A stretch of 64,000 nt of DNA from the NCBI GenBank assembly GCA_040755995.1, contig JBFMAF010000032.1, positions 193,306-257,305 on the forward strand, in the 5' to 3' direction. Below the pieces are notes generated by a model, which saw only the letters and a list, made by a program, of their open reading frames with translations, was not told the origin of the DNA and ran no database searches. Below, one piece after another: positions 1 through 11,047 of this stretch. The translations under genes were made by a program, and so were the position numbers. Source of the DNA: Acidobacteriota bacterium. GTDB taxonomy: Bacteria; Acidobacteriota; CAIWXX01. Position 1 is the stretch's first letter. Each line of letters begins with the position of its first letter.

Positions 1-285
1 GTGGAAAAGCAACTCGCGCCCTCCGTAGCGTACTGGCGGCAGCAGACCACCCCTGACCCGGCACGGTGCCCGAGCTGCAAGCGGCGCAGTGAGATGACGT
101 TGAGCCGGTCCAGGCAGGAGCTGGACGACCAAGAGGGAGCGGTCCACTACGGACGCTGCTGTCGCGAAGGGACGATCTGGGGCTCGAACGTGGATCTAGG
201 CTGGTTCACTCCCGAAGGAGAACAGCTCGAAGGGCTCCGTAGGGCTCTTGCCGGCTCCTGGGATCCGTGCAACCGAAAGGACTGA
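1..285 (+). CDS. 3' part of a hypothetical protein (window edge)
   Basis: Open frame from the window start to TGA at 283-285; contains CPSC; no recognisable family. Confidence 0.35.
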   Translation: MEKQLAPSVAYWRQQTTPDPARCPSCKRRSEMTLSRSRQELDDQEGAVHYGRCCREGTIWGSNVDLGWFTPEGEQLEGLRRALAGSWDPCNRKD

Positions 286-320
286 GCTGTCTTGATCCCG
301 ATTGTGGGATTGTGGTTGTG

Positions 321-349
321 GTGCATTCTGATGCCAAATGGTGTATACT
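321..349 (+). promoter_or_regulatory. Putative sigma70 promoter of the RHH/toxin pair (likely leaderless mRNA)
   Basis: GTGCAT(321-326)-17 bp-TATACT(344-349); the ATG at 356 follows after 6 nt, with no Shine-Dalgarno. Confidence 0.45.
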
Positions 350-355
350 TGTGAC

Positions 356-613
356 ATGGCCATGATTGAAAAAGCGATCCGCCAGAGCGTCTCGCTCCCT
401 TCTCCACTGGCGAAGCGGGTGAAGGCCCTGGCAAGGCGTCGAAAAGTCAGTTCCAATCGGATACTTGTTGAACTTGTCGAAACGGGGCTGCGAACAAAAG
501 AAGACGAGAAGCGCAGATTCTTCGAATTGGCAGATAGGCTAAGCAAGTCAAGCGACGTGCGGGAACAGCGAGAACTGAAAGAACACCTTGCCCGAATGAC
601 TTTCGGGGAATGA
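356..613 (+). CDS. Ribbon-helix-helix (CopG-like) DNA-binding protein, putative antitoxin
   Basis: 85 aa; RQSVSLP beta-strand followed by two helices (LAKRVKALARRRKVSSNRILVELVETGL); abuts the next ORF (TGA-GTG). Confidence 0.7.
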   Translation: MAMIEKAIRQSVSLPSPLAKRVKALARRRKVSSNRILVELVETGLRTKEDEKRRFFELADRLSKSSDVREQRELKEHLARMTFGE

Positions 614-856
614 GTGCCGAAGATCCAGTGGACCGATCTGCCTCCCACTCTGCGCGATCACCTCTTTGAGCGGCTTCGAGAGCGTCGAATCACCGCCGAG
701 GATCTGTATCAGCTGAAACTCCGGCGAGAATCTGAGCCCGACGCCCCGAATGGTGATTGGTACAAGGATTTCGGATCATTCAAGGTCTGTGGCAGGGGGA
801 AATATCCCAAGACGTTCCTTCTTCGAGGGCAACCCGCCAAGGGCCAGGAACTGTGA
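614..856 (+). CDS. Small hypothetical protein, putative toxin partner
   Basis: 80 aa, starts immediately after the RHH stop codon; WYKDFGSFKVCG motif; function inferred from gene-pair architecture only. Confidence 0.6.
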   Translation: MPKIQWTDLPPTLRDHLFERLRERRITAEDLYQLKLRRESEPDAPNGDWYKDFGSFKVCGRGKYPKTFLLRGQPAKGQEL

Positions 857-1020
857 ATCGCGTCGTCTAGATCTGACAGTCACAAGTTCGTTTGCACGAA
901 GTGCCGGCCGAATGCACTTCGAGAATCCGCGGTCGCACTCGAAACGCGGCGAAAGGGCATAGGGCCGAGTTGCGATCGGCATGAGGCCTCGCGTAAAATT
1001 CATGGCAGCGGGGACGCGAA

Positions 1021-1290
1021 ATGGACCTGAAGTCTCGGTACTCAAAGGATGAGTTTGCCCGACGCGGCGACGCGCTATACGAGCAGGAGATCGGTCCGCA
1101 AGTAGAAGCTAGGAACCAGGGCAAGTTCGTTGCCATTGATATCGATAGCGGTGCCTACGAGATCGATGCGGACGAACTGGCTGCATCCGACCGACTCCTT
1201 GCACGCAAACCCGAGGCGCAGGTGTGGCTGCGGAGGATCGGCTCCAGGCACGTGCGTCACTTCGGTCCGCGGCAACGCCGCGTCGCATGA
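1021..1290 (+). CDS. Small hypothetical protein (DUF5678-like partner of a clan AA protease)
   Basis: 89 aa with GKFVAID and VWLRRIG motifs; ATGA overlap with the protease gene. Confidence 0.65.
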   Translation: MDLKSRYSKDEFARRGDALYEQEIGPQVEARNQGKFVAIDIDSGAYEIDADELAASDRLLARKPEAQVWLRRIGSRHVRHFGPRQRRVA

Positions 1291-1658
1291 TCACGGGTTT
1301 CGTTACTCAGGATCTCGAAGCCATCGTGCGCGTGACCGTCCACGATCGTGACGGAAGAGGCCACGAGATGGAGTCGGTCGTGGATACCGGCTTCGATGGC
1401 TCCTTGACTCTCCCGGCCTCGGTCATCGCTTTGTTGGGGCTGCGCTGGTGTCGACGTGGCCGACCCCTGCTGGCAGACGGCCGTGAGAGCGTCTGCGACA
1501 TCTTCGAAGCAACCATCAGCTGGGATGGAAGTACTCGTCGCATTCCTGTGGACGCGGCAGAAACCGCACCCCTGATCGGCATGTCCCTTCTGCACGGCTA
1601 CGAGCTGATCATACGGATCGTGGATGGTGGCGACGTGACAATCACCGCGCTCCCATGA
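1287..1658 (+). CDS. Clan AA (retropepsin-like) aspartic protease
   Basis: VVDTGFDG catalytic motif and PLIGMSLL C-terminal motif; start at the ATGA overlap (1287). Confidence 0.85.
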   Translation: MITGFVTQDLEAIVRVTVHDRDGRGHEMESVVDTGFDGSLTLPASVIALLGLRWCRRGRPLLADGRESVCDIFEATISWDGSTRRIPVDAAETAPLIGMSLLHGYELIIRIVDGGDVTITALP

Positions 1659-1736
1659 GGCGGAGACGCCTAGAGCGGATTCTGCCATGACGAACGAGTC
1701 GAGTGTGACAATACCAGCCGGACAAGACAGCGATCC

Positions 1737-2048
1737 ATGTTCGACCAATCTCTTGTGAAGAAATCCGGGCAAGTGTGGAAGCTCCACTTATTCTTGGTCC
1801 TACCTGTCGCAGGCTTTCTACTTATCCTGTATGCGCTCCGAAGCACCACAGACCACTTCCCCGCCGTCCTTCTGTTCTCAGGCTTCGCACTAGCCCTCCT
1901 GGGTGTGGCATTTCCCTCCGTCTCAATCGCCTGCCCCGAATGCAGAACGCGCTTGCTGTGGAAAGCCCTCCGTGAGCGGCCTGTACATGCCTGGTTGTTC
2001 TGGCTTGTCGGGCTTCGCCAATGTCCGAAATGCGGGAGGGGAGGTTGA
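1737..2048 (+). CDS. Small membrane protein with Zn-ribbon
   Basis: Two hydrophobic helices followed by CPEC and CPKC. Confidence 0.6.
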   Translation: MFDQSLVKKSGQVWKLHLFLVLPVAGFLLILYALRSTTDHFPAVLLFSGFALALLGVAFPSVSIACPECRTRLLWKALRERPVHAWLFWLVGLRQCPKCGRGG

Positions 2049-6426: not shown

Positions 6427-6999
6427 TCAGGGCTCATCCAGTCGACGTCGTGGCCGGTCATGCTTCAGTTGCGCGTAGCTGCGTTCGAGGTAGAACTCGT
6501 GGGGCACGACCAGCGGCGTATAGTCGAGGGGCAGGCGCAAGTTCGGCTCGACGTACCAGTCGGCGGCAGCGGCCTGCACCACGTGCGCGGCGTCGAGGTT
6601 CACGAGCTCCCACGCGATGATGCGCTGGAGCCTGCAGAGCGCCTCGATGACAGTGTCCCCCGAAGACGTCCGCGTCCAGAGGCAGACGAAGCCGTTGCGA
6701 GGATCGACGTTCGGGTGGAAGATTGGGTCAGTCAGGTAGGCTTCGGTGGGCATTGCTGGGTAGAACCGCGGGAACAACAGTCTCACATCGTGTTCGTGTG
6801 AGAGCGCGCACGGTGGACCCAGGCTCGTGATGCCGCACGTGCGGCGGAGGGAGACTCGAACGGCGTCCGCGGACTGCTCCGCCCCACTGAAAGCCAGAGT
6901 CTCCGGATTGAGATCGATCAGGCGCCAAAGCAGCTCGCGTTCGCTCCGCAATCGCCGCCCGCGTACGCTCAGGGCCGAGGGCCGGTCGGGATCAACCAT
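6427..6999 (-). CDS. Ubiquitin-conjugating enzyme E2 (UBC fold)
   Basis: LFPRFYPAMPTEAYLTDPIFHPNVDPRNGFVCLW matches the UBC signature FPxxYPxxPP...IFHPN(V/I)xxxGx(I/V)CL, including the catalytic Cys; start overlaps the Ubl stop. Confidence 0.85.
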   Translation of the reverse strand: MVDPDRPSALSVRGRRLRSERELLWRLIDLNPETLAFSGAEQSADAVRVSLRRTCGITSLGPPCALSHEHDVRLLFPRFYPAMPTEAYLTDPIFHPNVDPRNGFVCLWTRTSSGDTVIEALCRLQRIIAWELVNLDAAHVVQAAAADWYVEPNLRLPLDYTPLVVPHEFYLERSYAQLKHDRPRRRLDEP

Positions 7000-7252
7000 T
7001 GATGGCGATCGTCGATACCCTCAGGACATCGTTCGGGCGGACACCTTGCTCCGGCAGCGCCCGGCCGAACTCGAGCATCTGCCCGCTCCAGATCACCTGC
7101 GGCTCTCCGTCCCCGCGCAGCACGTCGCCGCGTTCGCGGAGCTCATAAAGGATCTCGCCGATCACCGTCTCGAGAGCCTCGTTCTCGTCGATGTCCACGT
7201 TGTAACGCTTCTCGCCGCCTATCGTGTCGAAGTAGATCTGGTACTTGGGCAT
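6992..7252 (-). CDS. Ubiquitin-like beta-grasp protein ending in Gly
   Basis: 86 aa from ATG 7252 (GAGGGA Shine-Dalgarno); WSGQMLEFGRALPEQGVRPNDVLRV resembles ubiquitin [25 protein letters not shown]; C-terminus STIAING*. Confidence 0.8.
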   Translation of the reverse strand: MPKYQIYFDTIGGEKRYNVDIDENEALETVIGEILYELRERGDVLRGDGEPQVIWSGQMLEFGRALPEQGVRPNDVLRVSTIAING

Positions 7253-7259
7253 GCGTCCC

Positions 7260-8009
7260 TCACAGGCGATATCGAGCCTGCCGGCGTTCCGCGCGGCCGG
7301 GCCGTTCACCGCCGTCATCACGGATGATATAGGGCTCGAGCTGTGGAGGCAAGTCGTCGATGACCCAGTTGCACCGGCTGCAGGCGCCGTTGTTGAAGTC
7401 CCAGCAGCCCTTGCACTGCGGGCGGCCGCATTGCCCGCACGCGCGTAGGTCCACCTCGGCGGCCACGGCGAGACAGATCTGGCAGCGGCCGGCGTGCACG
7501 CGCGGGCCCAATTGAGCCTCCCACCAGCGGCTGTCTGGGCTGAATATCGGGACGCGATTCTCGGCGCAGAGCCGGCAGCGGCACTGCTCGAACACCCAGC
7601 ACTCCCGATCGCAGACCCGCAGCCCGCACCGCGGGCAGTCGAAGATGAGGTCGCGGTCGAACCCGCGGTTGCACAATGCGCACCGCGGCCTCTGGATCAT
7701 GAACAGCACCACGATGCCCGCCGTCGCCGCGGCGATCAAAGGCGATGTCCACGCCAGGTGCATCACGCTCGCCGGATCGCCAAGGTATCGCACGCCCAGC
7801 CCCGCGAGCGACGACAGCGCCGCAAGCAGCATCGGTGACCACCATCGCTGTAGCCCGAGGTGGAAGAGCCGAGCCAGAGCGAATACGAGGAGACCGATTG
7901 CCGCCGCAGCGCCGAAGGCCGCGCGCGGATCGAGGTATGATCCGAGGAGTTGGAGGATCCCCAGCAGGAACCAGCAAGCTACAAGAGTCGCGGGCTTTCT
8001 GATGCTCAC
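7260..8009 (-). CDS. Membrane protein with two C-terminal RING-like binuclear Zn fingers (candidate E3 ligase)
   Basis: About 4 hydrophobic helices, then CxxC-x11-CxxC-x4-CxxxCW-x4-CxCxxC and CxxC-x11-CxxC-x4-CxxCW-x6-CxxC; lies between the E1 and Ubl genes. Confidence 0.7.
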   Translation of the reverse strand: MSIRKPATLVACWFLLGILQLLGSYLDPRAAFGAAAAIGLLVFALARLFHLGLQRWWSPMLLAALSSLAGLGVRYLGDPASVMHLAWTSPLIAAATAGIVVLFMIQRPRCALCNRGFDRDLIFDCPRCGLRVCDRECWVFEQCRCRLCAENRVPIFSPDSRWWEAQLGPRVHAGRCQICLAVAAEVDLRACGQCGRPQCKGCWDFNNGACSRCNWVIDDLPPQLEPYIIRDDGGERPGRAERRQARYRL

Positions 8010-8018
8010 GAGCGCATC

Positions 8019-9191
8019 TTACCAGAAACGGAACGTGTGGAGGTGTCGATCGGGGAGGTCTAGCTGTGCCAACGTCGAAGCGGCCCACGCGGAGGTCCGT
8101 TCGACCTCGCGGATGACCTGCTCCGGGCGTATGTTCACAGACGCGCAGCCCGGGCAGACTCCCGATTCCCGCAGAGCAGCGAGCCTGCGCATGGGCGCCC
8201 AGGTGTGGCCGCAGGCGGCGCACCGTGCGCGCGTGCAGATGGGCCAGTCGAGCACGAGCGCGGCGCGCCTGGCGGACGTCGCTTCAGCGGACTGTATGAG
8301 ATCCACCACGGTTACCCGATCGGAGGGACCCGGAGATGGTAGCATGGTGTCGGCGGCGTCATGAAACGGGCAGAAGGAGCTGAGCGCCAGACCGATCGTC
8401 TCCATCTTCGGCTGCGCCTGACTCAGGTCCACTTCCGCGCTCCACGCGACACTCGGCGGGTCTCGGCGTCCCTCGTAGAGCCACCGAAGACCGATCTCGA
8501 CTTGCATGGCGCCGACGATGGCGGACATTGTGGGGGTGCTGGGATAGGCCGGTGCATGCGGGCCGGCAGGCTCGATCCAGCACGGGTGCGATTCCGATTC
8601 CCACCGAGTCAGCAATTCCCGCCGGCGCCCTTCGGTCAGAAGACAGCAGAAGCAGGCCGCGTCCCTGCCCGGGAATACCGTCACGCGGCCGCGCGAGTAG
8701 CTGCTGCCGCCGAGTCCGCCGTCTACCTGCGGCACGTTCAGCTTGGTGACGATGTAGGCTATCTCGAGGCGCGCGAGATCGCTGTCGACGCAGCCGAACA
8801 AGAGATGCGCCTCGGCGATGTCCTGAAAGCCCACGCCGGCAACCTCGCGCGGAATCGCCGTCCATCGAGTATCCGGGAAGAGCCGCTCAGCGGACTCAAC
8901 GATGGCCAGCGCCTTGTTGCGGCCGATCGCATCTTGCGCACGGAAAAACAGCGAGCGCGTAAGGTTGCTCGGCTCGACGGCGTCGTGATCGATGACGAGC
9001 ACTCGCGCCGCACCCAGCAGCCCCAGCGCTCTCACCACTTCGTTGCCGAGCGCCCCGGCGCCGACGACGACGGCGTTCAGCTGCGAGACACGCTGAGGAG
9101 CGAAGATGGTGCCGTCGAGACGCGAGTAGTCGACCGCGGGAGCTTGAATCGATTCACCAGGGGACTCTGGCTGCATTTGGGCCGGCGACAC
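8019..9191 (-). CDS. ThiF/MoeB-family E1 ubiquitin-like activating enzyme with C-terminal extension
   Basis: VVVGAGALG, DHDAVEPSNLTR, CVDSDLAR, Zn ligands CFCC/CPFH, candidate catalytic Cys in ESHPC, extra CAAC/CPGC ribbon; start GTG 9191 or ATG 9176. Confidence 0.9.
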   Translation of the reverse strand: MSPAQMQPESPGESIQAPAVDYSRLDGTIFAPQRVSQLNAVVVGAGALGNEVVRALGLLGAARVLVIDHDAVEPSNLTRSLFFRAQDAIGRNKALAIVESAERLFPDTRWTAIPREVAGVGFQDIAEAHLLFGCVDSDLARLEIAYIVTKLNVPQVDGGLGGSSYSRGRVTVFPGRDAACFCCLLTEGRRRELLTRWESESHPCWIEPAGPHAPAYPSTPTMSAIVGAMQVEIGLRWLYEGRRDPPSVAWSAEVDLSQAQPKMETIGLALSSFCPFHDAADTMLPSPGPSDRVTVVDLIQSAEATSARRAALVLDWPICTRARCAACGHTWAPMRRLAALRESGVCPGCASVNIRPEQVIREVERTSAWAASTLAQLDLPDRHLHTFRFW

Positions 9192-9302: not shown

Positions 9303-9902
9303 TTATGCACATCCGATCACCATCACTGATACGCGTCGCTCTTTCGGCCGGTCCAGCTCCAGCAGGAATATCCGCTGCCATCGCCCGAGGTTCATTCTGC
9401 CCTGGACGATGTTGATCACCTCGGAGGTGCGCAGGAGCGATGCCTTGCAGTGCGCGTGACCGTTCGGGCGCTCGTCCGGGGTCATGTTGACAGTGCGGAT
9501 GTCGAATCGGTCGTGACGATAGCCCCGCCGGCGAGGGGCGAACACCTCCAGCGCCCAGCCGATGTCCTCGAAGAGCAACGGCTCGGCCTCGTTCACGAGC
9601 ACCGCTGCGGTCGTGTGCATGCTCTGAACGTTCGCCATCCCGCTTCTGACTCCGGATGCAGACACGATCGCACGTACCTCGTCCGTGATGTCGACAAACT
9701 CGTGACACCGGCTTGTCTCCACACGAATGGTGTCGTGCAGGCTTCTGAATTCGGCCCGCGCCAGCCGGCGCGCACGACTCCGGCCTCTTGGGATGCCGCG
9801 AGGCGGAATGAGAGGAAAAGGCGCGACGGGCGGCGCGATCACGGGCCCGGTCGAGGTCGGATCCCTGCGCGCCCATGTTGTCTGCGCGTTCACTTCTGAC
9901 AT
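9303..9902 (-). CDS. yjbQ: YjbQ/UPF0047 family protein
   Basis: HTTAAVLVNE, NGHAHCKASL and LGRWQRIFLLELD motifs; GGAGG Shine-Dalgarno before ATG 9902. Confidence 0.88.
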   Translation of the reverse strand: MSEVNAQTTWARRDPTSTGPVIAPPVAPFPLIPPRGIPRGRSRARRLARAEFRSLHDTIRVETSRCHEFVDITDEVRAIVSASGVRSGMANVQSMHTTAAVLVNEAEPLLFEDIGWALEVFAPRRRGYRHDRFDIRTVNMTPDERPNGHAHCKASLLRTSEVINIVQGRMNLGRWQRIFLLELDRPKERRVSVMVIGCA

Positions 9903-9961
9903 ACTCTGACCTCCATTTGCATGCCATGCGTCATTTCGGAGAAGGACAGGTCCAATTACGA

Positions 9962-10998: not shown

Positions 10999-11047
10999 AA
11001 TATAGAGCACGACTTCATTTCTGTCAAGTACTTTGTGATACAAAGCA
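10999..11047 (-). promoter_or_regulatory. Sigma70 promoter (TTGACA-17-TATATT) with operator copy 2
   Basis: -35 at 11027-11022 and -10 at 11004-10999; CAAGTACTTTGTGATACAAAGCA (11025-11047) is 21/23 identical to copy 1. Confidence 0.8.

Follow-up and report, generated by a model that had tools for sequence, protein, structure and literature searches.

The 64,000-nucleotide window analysed here, from an Acidobacteriota bacterium (contig JBFMAF010000032.1), encodes on its minus strand a compact operon for a ubiquitin-like conjugation cascade, comprising in order an activating enzyme (E1), a transmembrane (TM) zinc-finger protein, a ubiquitin-like protein (Ubl) and a conjugating enzyme (E2). Conserved gene neighbourhoods and shared distribution indicate that the operon very probably serves a type VI secretion system (T6SS), and its invariant active-site residues suggest that it probably conjugates its Ubl. 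We also lean, with less confidence, towards a fuller model, drawn from known E1/E2 chemistry, natural gene fusions, charge and analogy, in which the Ubl would be conjugated by E1 and E2 to a membrane hub protein of the T6SS and would thereby license docking of the baseplate. The link to the T6SS is invisible from the window, because in this genome (G000) the T6SS cluster lies on one contig (C28, 115581-128859) and the operon on another (C32), each as a single copy.

An open reading frame check reproduced the tight packing described in an original prediction made from the window alone, with intergenic gaps of 9 and 7 bp followed by an 8-bp overlap. That prediction had left as a query whether the four genes co-occur elsewhere, and they do. 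Of 110 candidate loci from a scan with the zinc-finger alignment, using one genome per species, 67 were confirmed (63 carrying an Acidobacteriota label), and at these the Ubl (67/67), E2 (66/67) and E1 (65/67) genes occurred in the same order and were missing only at contig ends. An E2-anchored metagenome scan, from which 80 of 140 confirmed loci were kept without dereplication, showed the Ubl at 66 of 68 loci with enough flank, the zinc-finger gene at 49 of 50 and E1 at all 39. The four-gene order is far beyond chance. In one metagenome-assembled genome the operon is present twice, on separate contigs (L047 and L057), and loci labelled Janthinobacterium (L054, L058) and Verrucomicrobia (L048) grouped with Acidobacteriaceae (L058 in the tree) and are possibly mis-binned.

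Clustering of neighbouring genes at these loci returned one arrangement, in which the operon stands back-to-back with a gene for a TM protein bearing an FHA domain (TM-FHA), followed by a vWA-domain gene, tssB and tssC, and further on by two Hcp-like genes, tssE-like and tssF-like genes, tssG and tssK, with a Ser/Thr kinase gene often beside E2. TM-FHA was back-to-back with E1 at 54 of the 58 genome loci with enough flank, and tssB and tssC were present at 52/67 loci. A hub gene (TM-FHA or vWA) or T6SS gene was found at 59/67; six of the remaining eight end early upstream, and L021 and L036 have a full flank devoid of such genes, yet their genomes contain TssK. All 33 E2-anchored metagenome loci with at least 4 kb upstream carried hub or T6SS genes. 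Family matches were over cut-off for TssC, TssG, TssK, VgrG, vWA and the kinase, and weak for TssB and FHA; the TssF-like protein matched only TIGR02243, under cut-off, and the Hcp-like and TssE-like genes, with no family match, are labelled by position and size. TssC matches PF17541, which we take to be the Bacteroidota-type TssC model.

The distribution of the genes agrees with their synteny. Across the phylum, the Ubl, TssC and full-length TM-FHA were found in the same 7 of 401 genomes and in none of the other 394, with short partial matches to the TM-FHA profile in 13 further genomes of the 401; no p-value is attached to this co-occurrence, because the genomes are kin. Of the 66 operon genomes, 50 were searched for TssK and 48 had it. 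In G000, which is 99.8% complete, T6SS core genes are single copy except for two VgrG genes. No match to TssN (PF17555) was obtained there at E 1, in a search for which no positive-control genome is known, and none to TssL/DotU (PF09850), for which the E. coli control was positive. The membrane anchor of this T6SS thus appears unlike TssJLM or TssNOPQR, as judged by TssL and TssN, the two components looked for. Between tssC and an Hcp-like gene lies a gene (L069:7974-8492; G000 C28:119973-120491; families F12/F13) for a small, poorly conserved Pro/Ala-rich protein that ends in an amphipathic basic helix. Directly upstream of TM-FHA in G000 (C28:100649-113107; L068), CRISPR repeats, cas-like genes and a toxin-antitoxin-like pair, labelled by eye, occupy the place of the Ubl operon in relatives.

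A stand-alone role in anti-phage tagging or membrane quality control, as originally predicted, would be in keeping with characterised bacterial E1/E2 systems, which, as far as the available text of the sources goes, have an established or proposed role in phage defence (CBASS Cap2 and Bil; bioRxiv 2023.09.26.559546), and with the separation of operon and T6SS in this genome. We nevertheless consider it improbable, since the operon tracks the T6SS both by synteny and by presence or absence, occupying a fixed place in one T6SS locus, not varied defence islands, and sharing an identical distribution with TssC. PADLOC returned generic E1 matches only, with zero for the zinc-finger protein, the Ubl and E2. 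The linkage to a secretion system, together with VgrG genes near 7/67 loci, would also suit a Ubl that tags cargo, or enzymes that are themselves effectors secreted into target cells; the genes, however, show core-like conservation, unlike variable effectors, and lie beside the hub genes and not vgrG, and one product is a membrane protein, making this explanation very improbable.

Conservation within the enzymes supports conjugation as the activity brought to the T6SS. The ATP-binding, zinc and candidate catalytic Cys motifs first noted in E1 proved to be conserved (GxGxxG, D68, K93, D136, the Zn ligands and C204), with Cys204 invariant in 64/64 aligned sequences and the Pfam ThiF match over cut-off (Table 1). 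Profile matches of E1 to ThiF, SAE2, UBA7 and UBA3 cover the adenylation domain only. Its C-terminal domain matched no solved E1 domain in profile comparison, and the idea that it is a ubiquitin-fold domain was left unconfirmed by profile comparison with the Ubl or solved E1s. In E2, H95, P96, N97 and C106 are present in 67/67 sequences and the best solved relatives are Ubc9, Ubc15 and UBE2G1, so that the HPN motif and catalytic Cys of the original prediction hold, with a spacing of HPN-x8-C instead of the x7 then given. No relatives of E2 were found in a phage collection.

The Ubl likewise answers to its first description as an 86-residue beta-grasp protein ending in Gly: its model (predicted local distance difference test, pLDDT, 89.6) matched SUMO2 with Z 10.8 (root-mean-square deviation 1.8, 73 aligned), its terminal Gly (G86) is present in 68/68 sequences and its length is 86 in 67/68. 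Pfam assigned it to no real family. Identity across loci is 63-77% for the Ubl compared with about 30-50% for the other operon genes, and the protein is acidic (median net charge -9.5), its invariant acidic residues lying close to strand 2 and helix 1. A search of the called genes at the 67 related loci turned up no JAMM motif, and the one Prok-JAB match in G000 is unlinked and under cut-off; the missing JAMM motif fits a Ubl that needs no processing, as it ends in a free Gly. Of the complete E1-E2-E3 cascade originally envisaged, the thioester-type E1-E2-Ubl part is thus retained, with its invariant Cys and Gly residues and no JAMM motif, while matches of the proposed RING E3 to known RINGs are weak (E 0.02-0.03).

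A sulfur-carrier system of the ThiS/MoaD type would account for ThiF being the best sequence match of E1 and for the gene directly upstream in the window (9303-9911), YjbQ, which carries the NCBIfam label secondary thiamine-phosphate synthase and which the earlier statement that no thiamine or molybdopterin genes lie nearby had overlooked. YjbQ adjoins the operon at 0/67 related loci, however, where that statement stands with respect to it; the CoA-activase gene downstream likewise occurs at 0/67, and the flanks in the window are therefore incidental. An intact HPN-Cys E2 is always adjacent, no cofactor genes are found among conserved neighbours, and NCBIfam ThiF and MoeB models on E1 all scored far under cut-off. 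We therefore rejected a sulfur-carrier role, which we regard as scarcely credible.

Natural fusions point to the probable partner of the Ubl. A TM-FHA profile run against 1.84 billion representatives gave 289 hits, and domain fusions were read among the best 150 of these 289. The matches listed included vWA-RING-TM-FHA (P0147), TM-FHA-vWA, kinase-TM-FHA and Ubl-TM-FHA, five matches of the last kind being significant at the scale of the library (E 3e-21 to 2e-6) and five weaker. Among 88 longer relatives of the Ubl, 52 were fusions to TM-FHA, 35 were fusions to E2 and one was a probable chimera. The Ubl+E2 fusions have Gly-Gly at the junction in 29/35, as expected of a cleavable modifier, and HPN-Cys in 34/35. 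The Ubl+TM-FHA fusions have a junction Gly in 0/52 and keep most of the acidic residues; their FHA domain is a circular permutant, and the Ubl is attached immediately ahead of the strand bearing K286 in the split TM-FHA (Lys in 24/25). A family of roughly 33 Ubl-GG-E2 fusions, each some 280 residues long (P0225-P0261, P0301), would need a peptidase.

The Ubl-TM-FHA fusion was found in 6 of 351 genomes of one class (Blastocatellia, judging by the source name), which belong to one sister family and three genera, and in no plasmids. Four of these genomes, 80-95% complete, were tested further. All four share the gene order zinc finger, Ubl-TM-FHA, vWA; the T6SS genes come immediately afterwards in three of them and about 30 kb off in G650 (7 contigs), and the same TssC, about 60% identical, is present. 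Their sole Ubl copy is the fused one; the E1 of the operon was not found in them, the short E1 matches there ending at residue 187 in the manner of housekeeping ThiF/MoeB. E2 was found in 0/87 genomes of the fused-form family, all six fusion genomes included (control G000, E 2.6e-62). All six fusion genomes keep the zinc-finger gene, which in the four lies directly upstream of the fusion; its product has 16 Cys in three genomes and, in the other three, 15 Cys plus a His close by, with finger 2 intact in all (by eye). In a TM-FHA tree of 44 chosen rows, with long branches flagged, split and fused forms were separated (90/96).

Two related arrangements were seen outside these genomes. The genome G543, which gave no match to TssC, Ubl, zinc-finger or E2 queries, encodes a TM-FHA-vWA fusion (L214:2703-4958), a hub-like protein set in another operon. 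A more distant system (L220, L221 and L222; about 1-1962, plus strand) occurs in a further family of the class that contains the fused forms, with, in order, a TM-FHA-like gene, a gene for a Cys/His finger protein with a hydrophobic C-terminus and an HPN-type E2 gene.

Because of the natural Ubl-TM-FHA fusions, we take TM-FHA as the candidate target. The same T6SS linkage would fit a cascade that conjugates for the T6SS with another target, such as the zinc-finger protein, the vWA tail, TssK or the sheath, or one that marks components for recycling by a ClpV-like ATPase. TssK has two invariant lysines (K355 and K385), a ClpB/ClpV-family ATPase gene follows tssK, and K3 of the Ubl is invariant (68/68), making chains possible. 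Yet TM-FHA is the only hub protein found fused to the Ubl (52/88), and none of the alignment columns of the zinc-finger protein conserves lysine at 40% or above; we judge another target unlikely, if worth keeping in mind. A non-covalent scaffold role for the Ubl within the T6SS, comparable to YukD/EsaB or EccD, with E1 and E2 loading, sequestering or releasing it as a thioester switch, is a less probable explanation again. Its fold would allow this, given a Z of 10.4 to EccD5, level with the scores for ubiquitin, ISG15 and others, and atlas neighbours in the TmoB and YukD clusters; YukD is needed for secretion in B. subtilis according to the available text of PMC3701619, and the fused Ubl has no terminal Gly. 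In the split form, however, the terminal Gly, the E1 Cys and the E2 HPN-Cys are all invariant, Gly-Gly stands at Ubl-E2 junctions and a RING-like finger is encoded alongside.

The earlier description of the zinc-finger protein as a 4-TM protein with two 8-Cys fingers was sound: the model shows four N-terminal helices, of which a hydropathy scan called three, and the 16-Cys pattern is present in 65/68 sequences. Finger 1 gave middling structural matches to the RIM zinc finger (Z 6.0), RUFY FYVE (5.9) and Slp4 (5.8), and finger 2 weak profile matches to the C4C4/NOT4-type RINGs NOT4 (E 0.021) and Arkadia (E 0.029), with W203 in 67/68 and R212 in 61/68. Pfam Prok-RING_2 matched the protein of the window at E 0.025, under cut-off, and was over cut-off in one of nine scanned homologues; Prok-RING matches exceeded the cut-off only in L020 and G288, and neither Prok-RING_1 nor Prok-RING_2 matched the Granulicella mallensis genome at E 0.01. 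In the vWA-RING-TM-FHA protein P0147, Prok-RING_1 was over cut-off and aligned to finger 2. Foldseek gave no match at E 0.001, its wider search being dominated by helical bundles, and no relatives were found in viral contigs. No longer, fused relatives appeared among 7999 candidates, which is weak evidence, P0147 having been found by a separate route. The fingers are basic (+5). The protein is a weak candidate for a RING E3, and is probably both a membrane hub subunit of the T6SS and an E2-positioning factor.

A basic motif recurs at the C-termini of several proteins of the system. TssK ends in RRRRLE after a Pro-rich linker in 30/31 sequences, and [RK]-x-R-L occurs within the last 24 residues of E2 in 60/64, TssK in 30/31, a small kinase in 29/32 and vWA in 44/51, compared with a background of 136/4443 genes (3.1%); the counts are descriptive, because the motif was defined after seeing those tails. 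In G000 it was not possible to pick out an ortholog of the small RxRL kinase. The basic TssK tail is kept in two fused-form genomes, and its reader is therefore not E1 or E2; by charge, the acidic Ubl would be the best candidate. The groove of SUMO that receives SUMO-interacting motifs (SIMs) is the analogy behind this reading. A complex prediction for the Ubl with the last 32 residues of TssK scored 0.03 against a mark of 0.32, and was counted neither for nor against binding. The cytoplasmic tails of vWA (L069:4547-6064 and relatives) also contain a conserved Thr motif in 43/51, a candidate phospho-site for the linked kinase and a possible ligand for the FHA domain.

We propose that E1 would adenylate the terminal Gly of the Ubl and form a thioester through Cys204, from which the Ubl would pass to Cys106 of E2, as in known E1/E2 chemistry, with the 4-TM zinc-finger protein positioning E2 at the inner membrane. 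E2 would then attach the Ubl to a lysine of TM-FHA, for which K286, near the natural fusion joint, and C-terminal lysines are candidates. By analogy, the acidic Ubl on the hub could recruit basic RxRL tails, those of the baseplate protein TssK, the Ser/Thr kinase and E2 itself, and tagging could thus license baseplate docking, going by charge. The tagged product would mimic the fused Ubl-TM-FHA and, functionally, perhaps the ubiquitin-like domain of Bacteroidota TssN. The further proposition that the docking site is made post-translationally and read by a charge-reversed, SIM-like RxRL motif, and that the fused lineages have dispensed with E1 and E2, seems to us evenly balanced.

Several observations weigh against this model. 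Among the enzymes, the ATP-binding Arg of the NLxR motif of E1 is present in just 27/66 sequences (the E1 of this window has it), and neither finger of the zinc-finger protein has a Pro in its last CxxC pair, a feature typical of E2-binding RINGs. Association is imperfect: the Ubl match is missing at two related E2 loci with flank and the zinc-finger gene at one, and two of 50 operon genomes gave no TssK match. The zinc-finger gene also persists in genomes that yielded neither E2 nor E1, and since it is kept without E2 the protein is not simply an E3. As for the tail, most Ubl-E2 fusions have none of the RxRL type (5/35 have one), and the motif in the vWA tail could be a phospho-Thr site instead. 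The fusions themselves attest close association and are not proof of a covalent bond in the split form; the TM-FHA tree is unrooted and sets no order for split and fused events, and the pattern of fusion with loss may be a single event, as the fused-form genomes are kin.

Operons of this general type are not new. Burroughs, Iyer and Aravind reportedly described prokaryotic E1/E2/RING/Ubl operons in 2011, and may list this operon and some of its neighbours. Related operons in Acidobacteria have been reported computationally, according to the available text of PMC4197634 (citing Burroughs 2011). As far as it is described in the portion available of PMC5654768, the ubiquitin operon of Caldiarchaeum subterraneum similarly encodes a compact Ubl, an E1 with a catalytic Cys, an HPN-type E2 and a RING-like finger; unlike that archaeal operon, the present one has no Rpn11/JAB, a Ubl mature with a single terminal Gly, a membrane-bound double finger and a fixed T6SS linkage.

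Three bacterial groupings were considered for membership and rejected (bioRxiv 2023.09.26.559546; PMC11601596; PMC11601603). Bil shares E1-E2 thioester chemistry and a beta-grasp modifier, but has a multidomain IAD-AAD-CYS E1 and a JAB peptidase and no E3 (in the text available of bioRxiv 2023.09.26.559546 for the E1), whereas here a single-ThiF 390-residue E1 with a Zn ribbon occurs in a T6SS context, and no JAMM motif was seen in 67 loci. CBASS Cap2 (of the cyclic oligonucleotide-based anti-phage signalling system) was rejected on the grounds that E1 and E2 are separate here and that there is no CD-NTase among conserved neighbours. Bub (6E/DUF6527) resembles the present system in its bacterial Ubl, E1 and E2, with Ubl-E2 fusions in both; its enzymes are without catalytic Cys and it involves oxyesters and BubE (PMC11601596, available portion), in contrast to the invariant E1 and E2 Cys here, and no DUF6527 was present among the scanned neighbour families.

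On the secretion side, the closest parallel is TssNOPQR of the Bacteroidota T6SS-iii, which shares a TM bundle with a ubiquitin-like element, a vWA partner and a TssC matching PF17541. In the available text of PMC10781749, TssK docks on the cytoplasmic ubiquitin-like domain that B. fragilis TssN carries alongside its TM helices, and the vWA domain belongs to TssR; here TssN was not found, the hub consists of TM-FHA and a membrane-anchored vWA, and the Ubl is separate and comes with an E1 and E2. The PpkA/PppA/Fha pathway (PMC13584744, in part) is alike in having a T6SS-linked Ser/Thr kinase and FHA under post-translational assembly control, and differs in that here FHA is membrane-embedded, a Ubl cascade is added and no conserved neighbour up to 8 kb away was recognised as a phosphatase. 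The accessible part of that 2026 review of T6SS accessory factors (PMC13584744) names no ubiquitin-like factor, and we found no paper linking such an operon to a T6SS in a search mostly outside the subscription literature. Within that partial coverage, the operon type is already known from computation, while no published account turned up of the T6SS coupling, the fusion bypass or the shared tail.

If the model is true, Ubl tagging would help to assemble or control a secretion machine, rather than serve defence or degradation, and a bacterial membrane-bound RING-like factor with a possible Ubl-binding motif would be relevant to the origin of eukaryotic ubiquitin signalling. The model lends itself to direct testing, since it specifies a target, candidate lysines and a candidate reader motif and comes with a natural bypass in the form of the fusion, and cultured soil Acidobacteria such as G. 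mallensis (L046) would be suitable test organisms.

Table 1. Operon features and their coordinates in the 64,000-nucleotide window
Feature	Position	Strand	Description
E1	8019..9191	-	390 aa; one ThiF-family adenylation domain and a C-terminal Zn-ribbon domain; Pfam ThiF E 3.9e-26, over cut-off
E1 structural Zn ligands C180/C183/C274/H277; second Zn ribbon C324/C327/C346/C349	within 8019..9191	-	from conservation counts
E1 Cys204 codon	8580..8582	-	candidate thioester Cys, 20 residues past the Zn CxxC; putative catalytic role
E1 C-terminal domain, residues 280-390	about 8022-8354	-	invariant second Zn ribbon, conserved W-P motif
TM-zinc-finger protein	7260..8009	-	249 aa; four N-terminal helices, two tandem 8-Cys binuclear fingers; model pLDDT 91.8
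Zinc finger 1 (C110-C148)	7566..7682	-	FYVE/RIM-like treble clef; middling structural scores
Zinc finger 2 (C176-C213)	7371..7484	-	RING-like C4C4, conserved Trp203 and Arg212; weak profile matches
Ubl	6992..7252	-	86 aa from ATG 7252, acidic beta-grasp, terminal Gly then stop (mature as translated)
E2	6427..6999	-	190 aa; UBC fold, HPN-x8-C, Cys106; Pfam UQ_con E 1.5e-6, over cut-off
E2 C-terminal R-x-R-L tail	6439..6450	-	R186 and L187 in 63/63

Elsewhere in the window, a promoter scan returned nothing directly 5' of E1. A near-perfect sigma-70 promoter match (10999-11027, minus strand, 11/12) precedes genes for a membrane protein and a winged-helix regulator, which are themselves 5' of yjbQ and the operon on the same strand. 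Several small open reading frame pairs (338-1658, plus strand) are toxin-antitoxin-like or aspartyl-protease-like, with family matches weak or none. On the plus strand at 13214-34101 stand three consecutive large, secreted-looking genes, for a HEAT protein of 925 residues, a PKD/DUF11 protein of 1230 residues and a CARDB/DUF11 repeat protein of 4800 residues.

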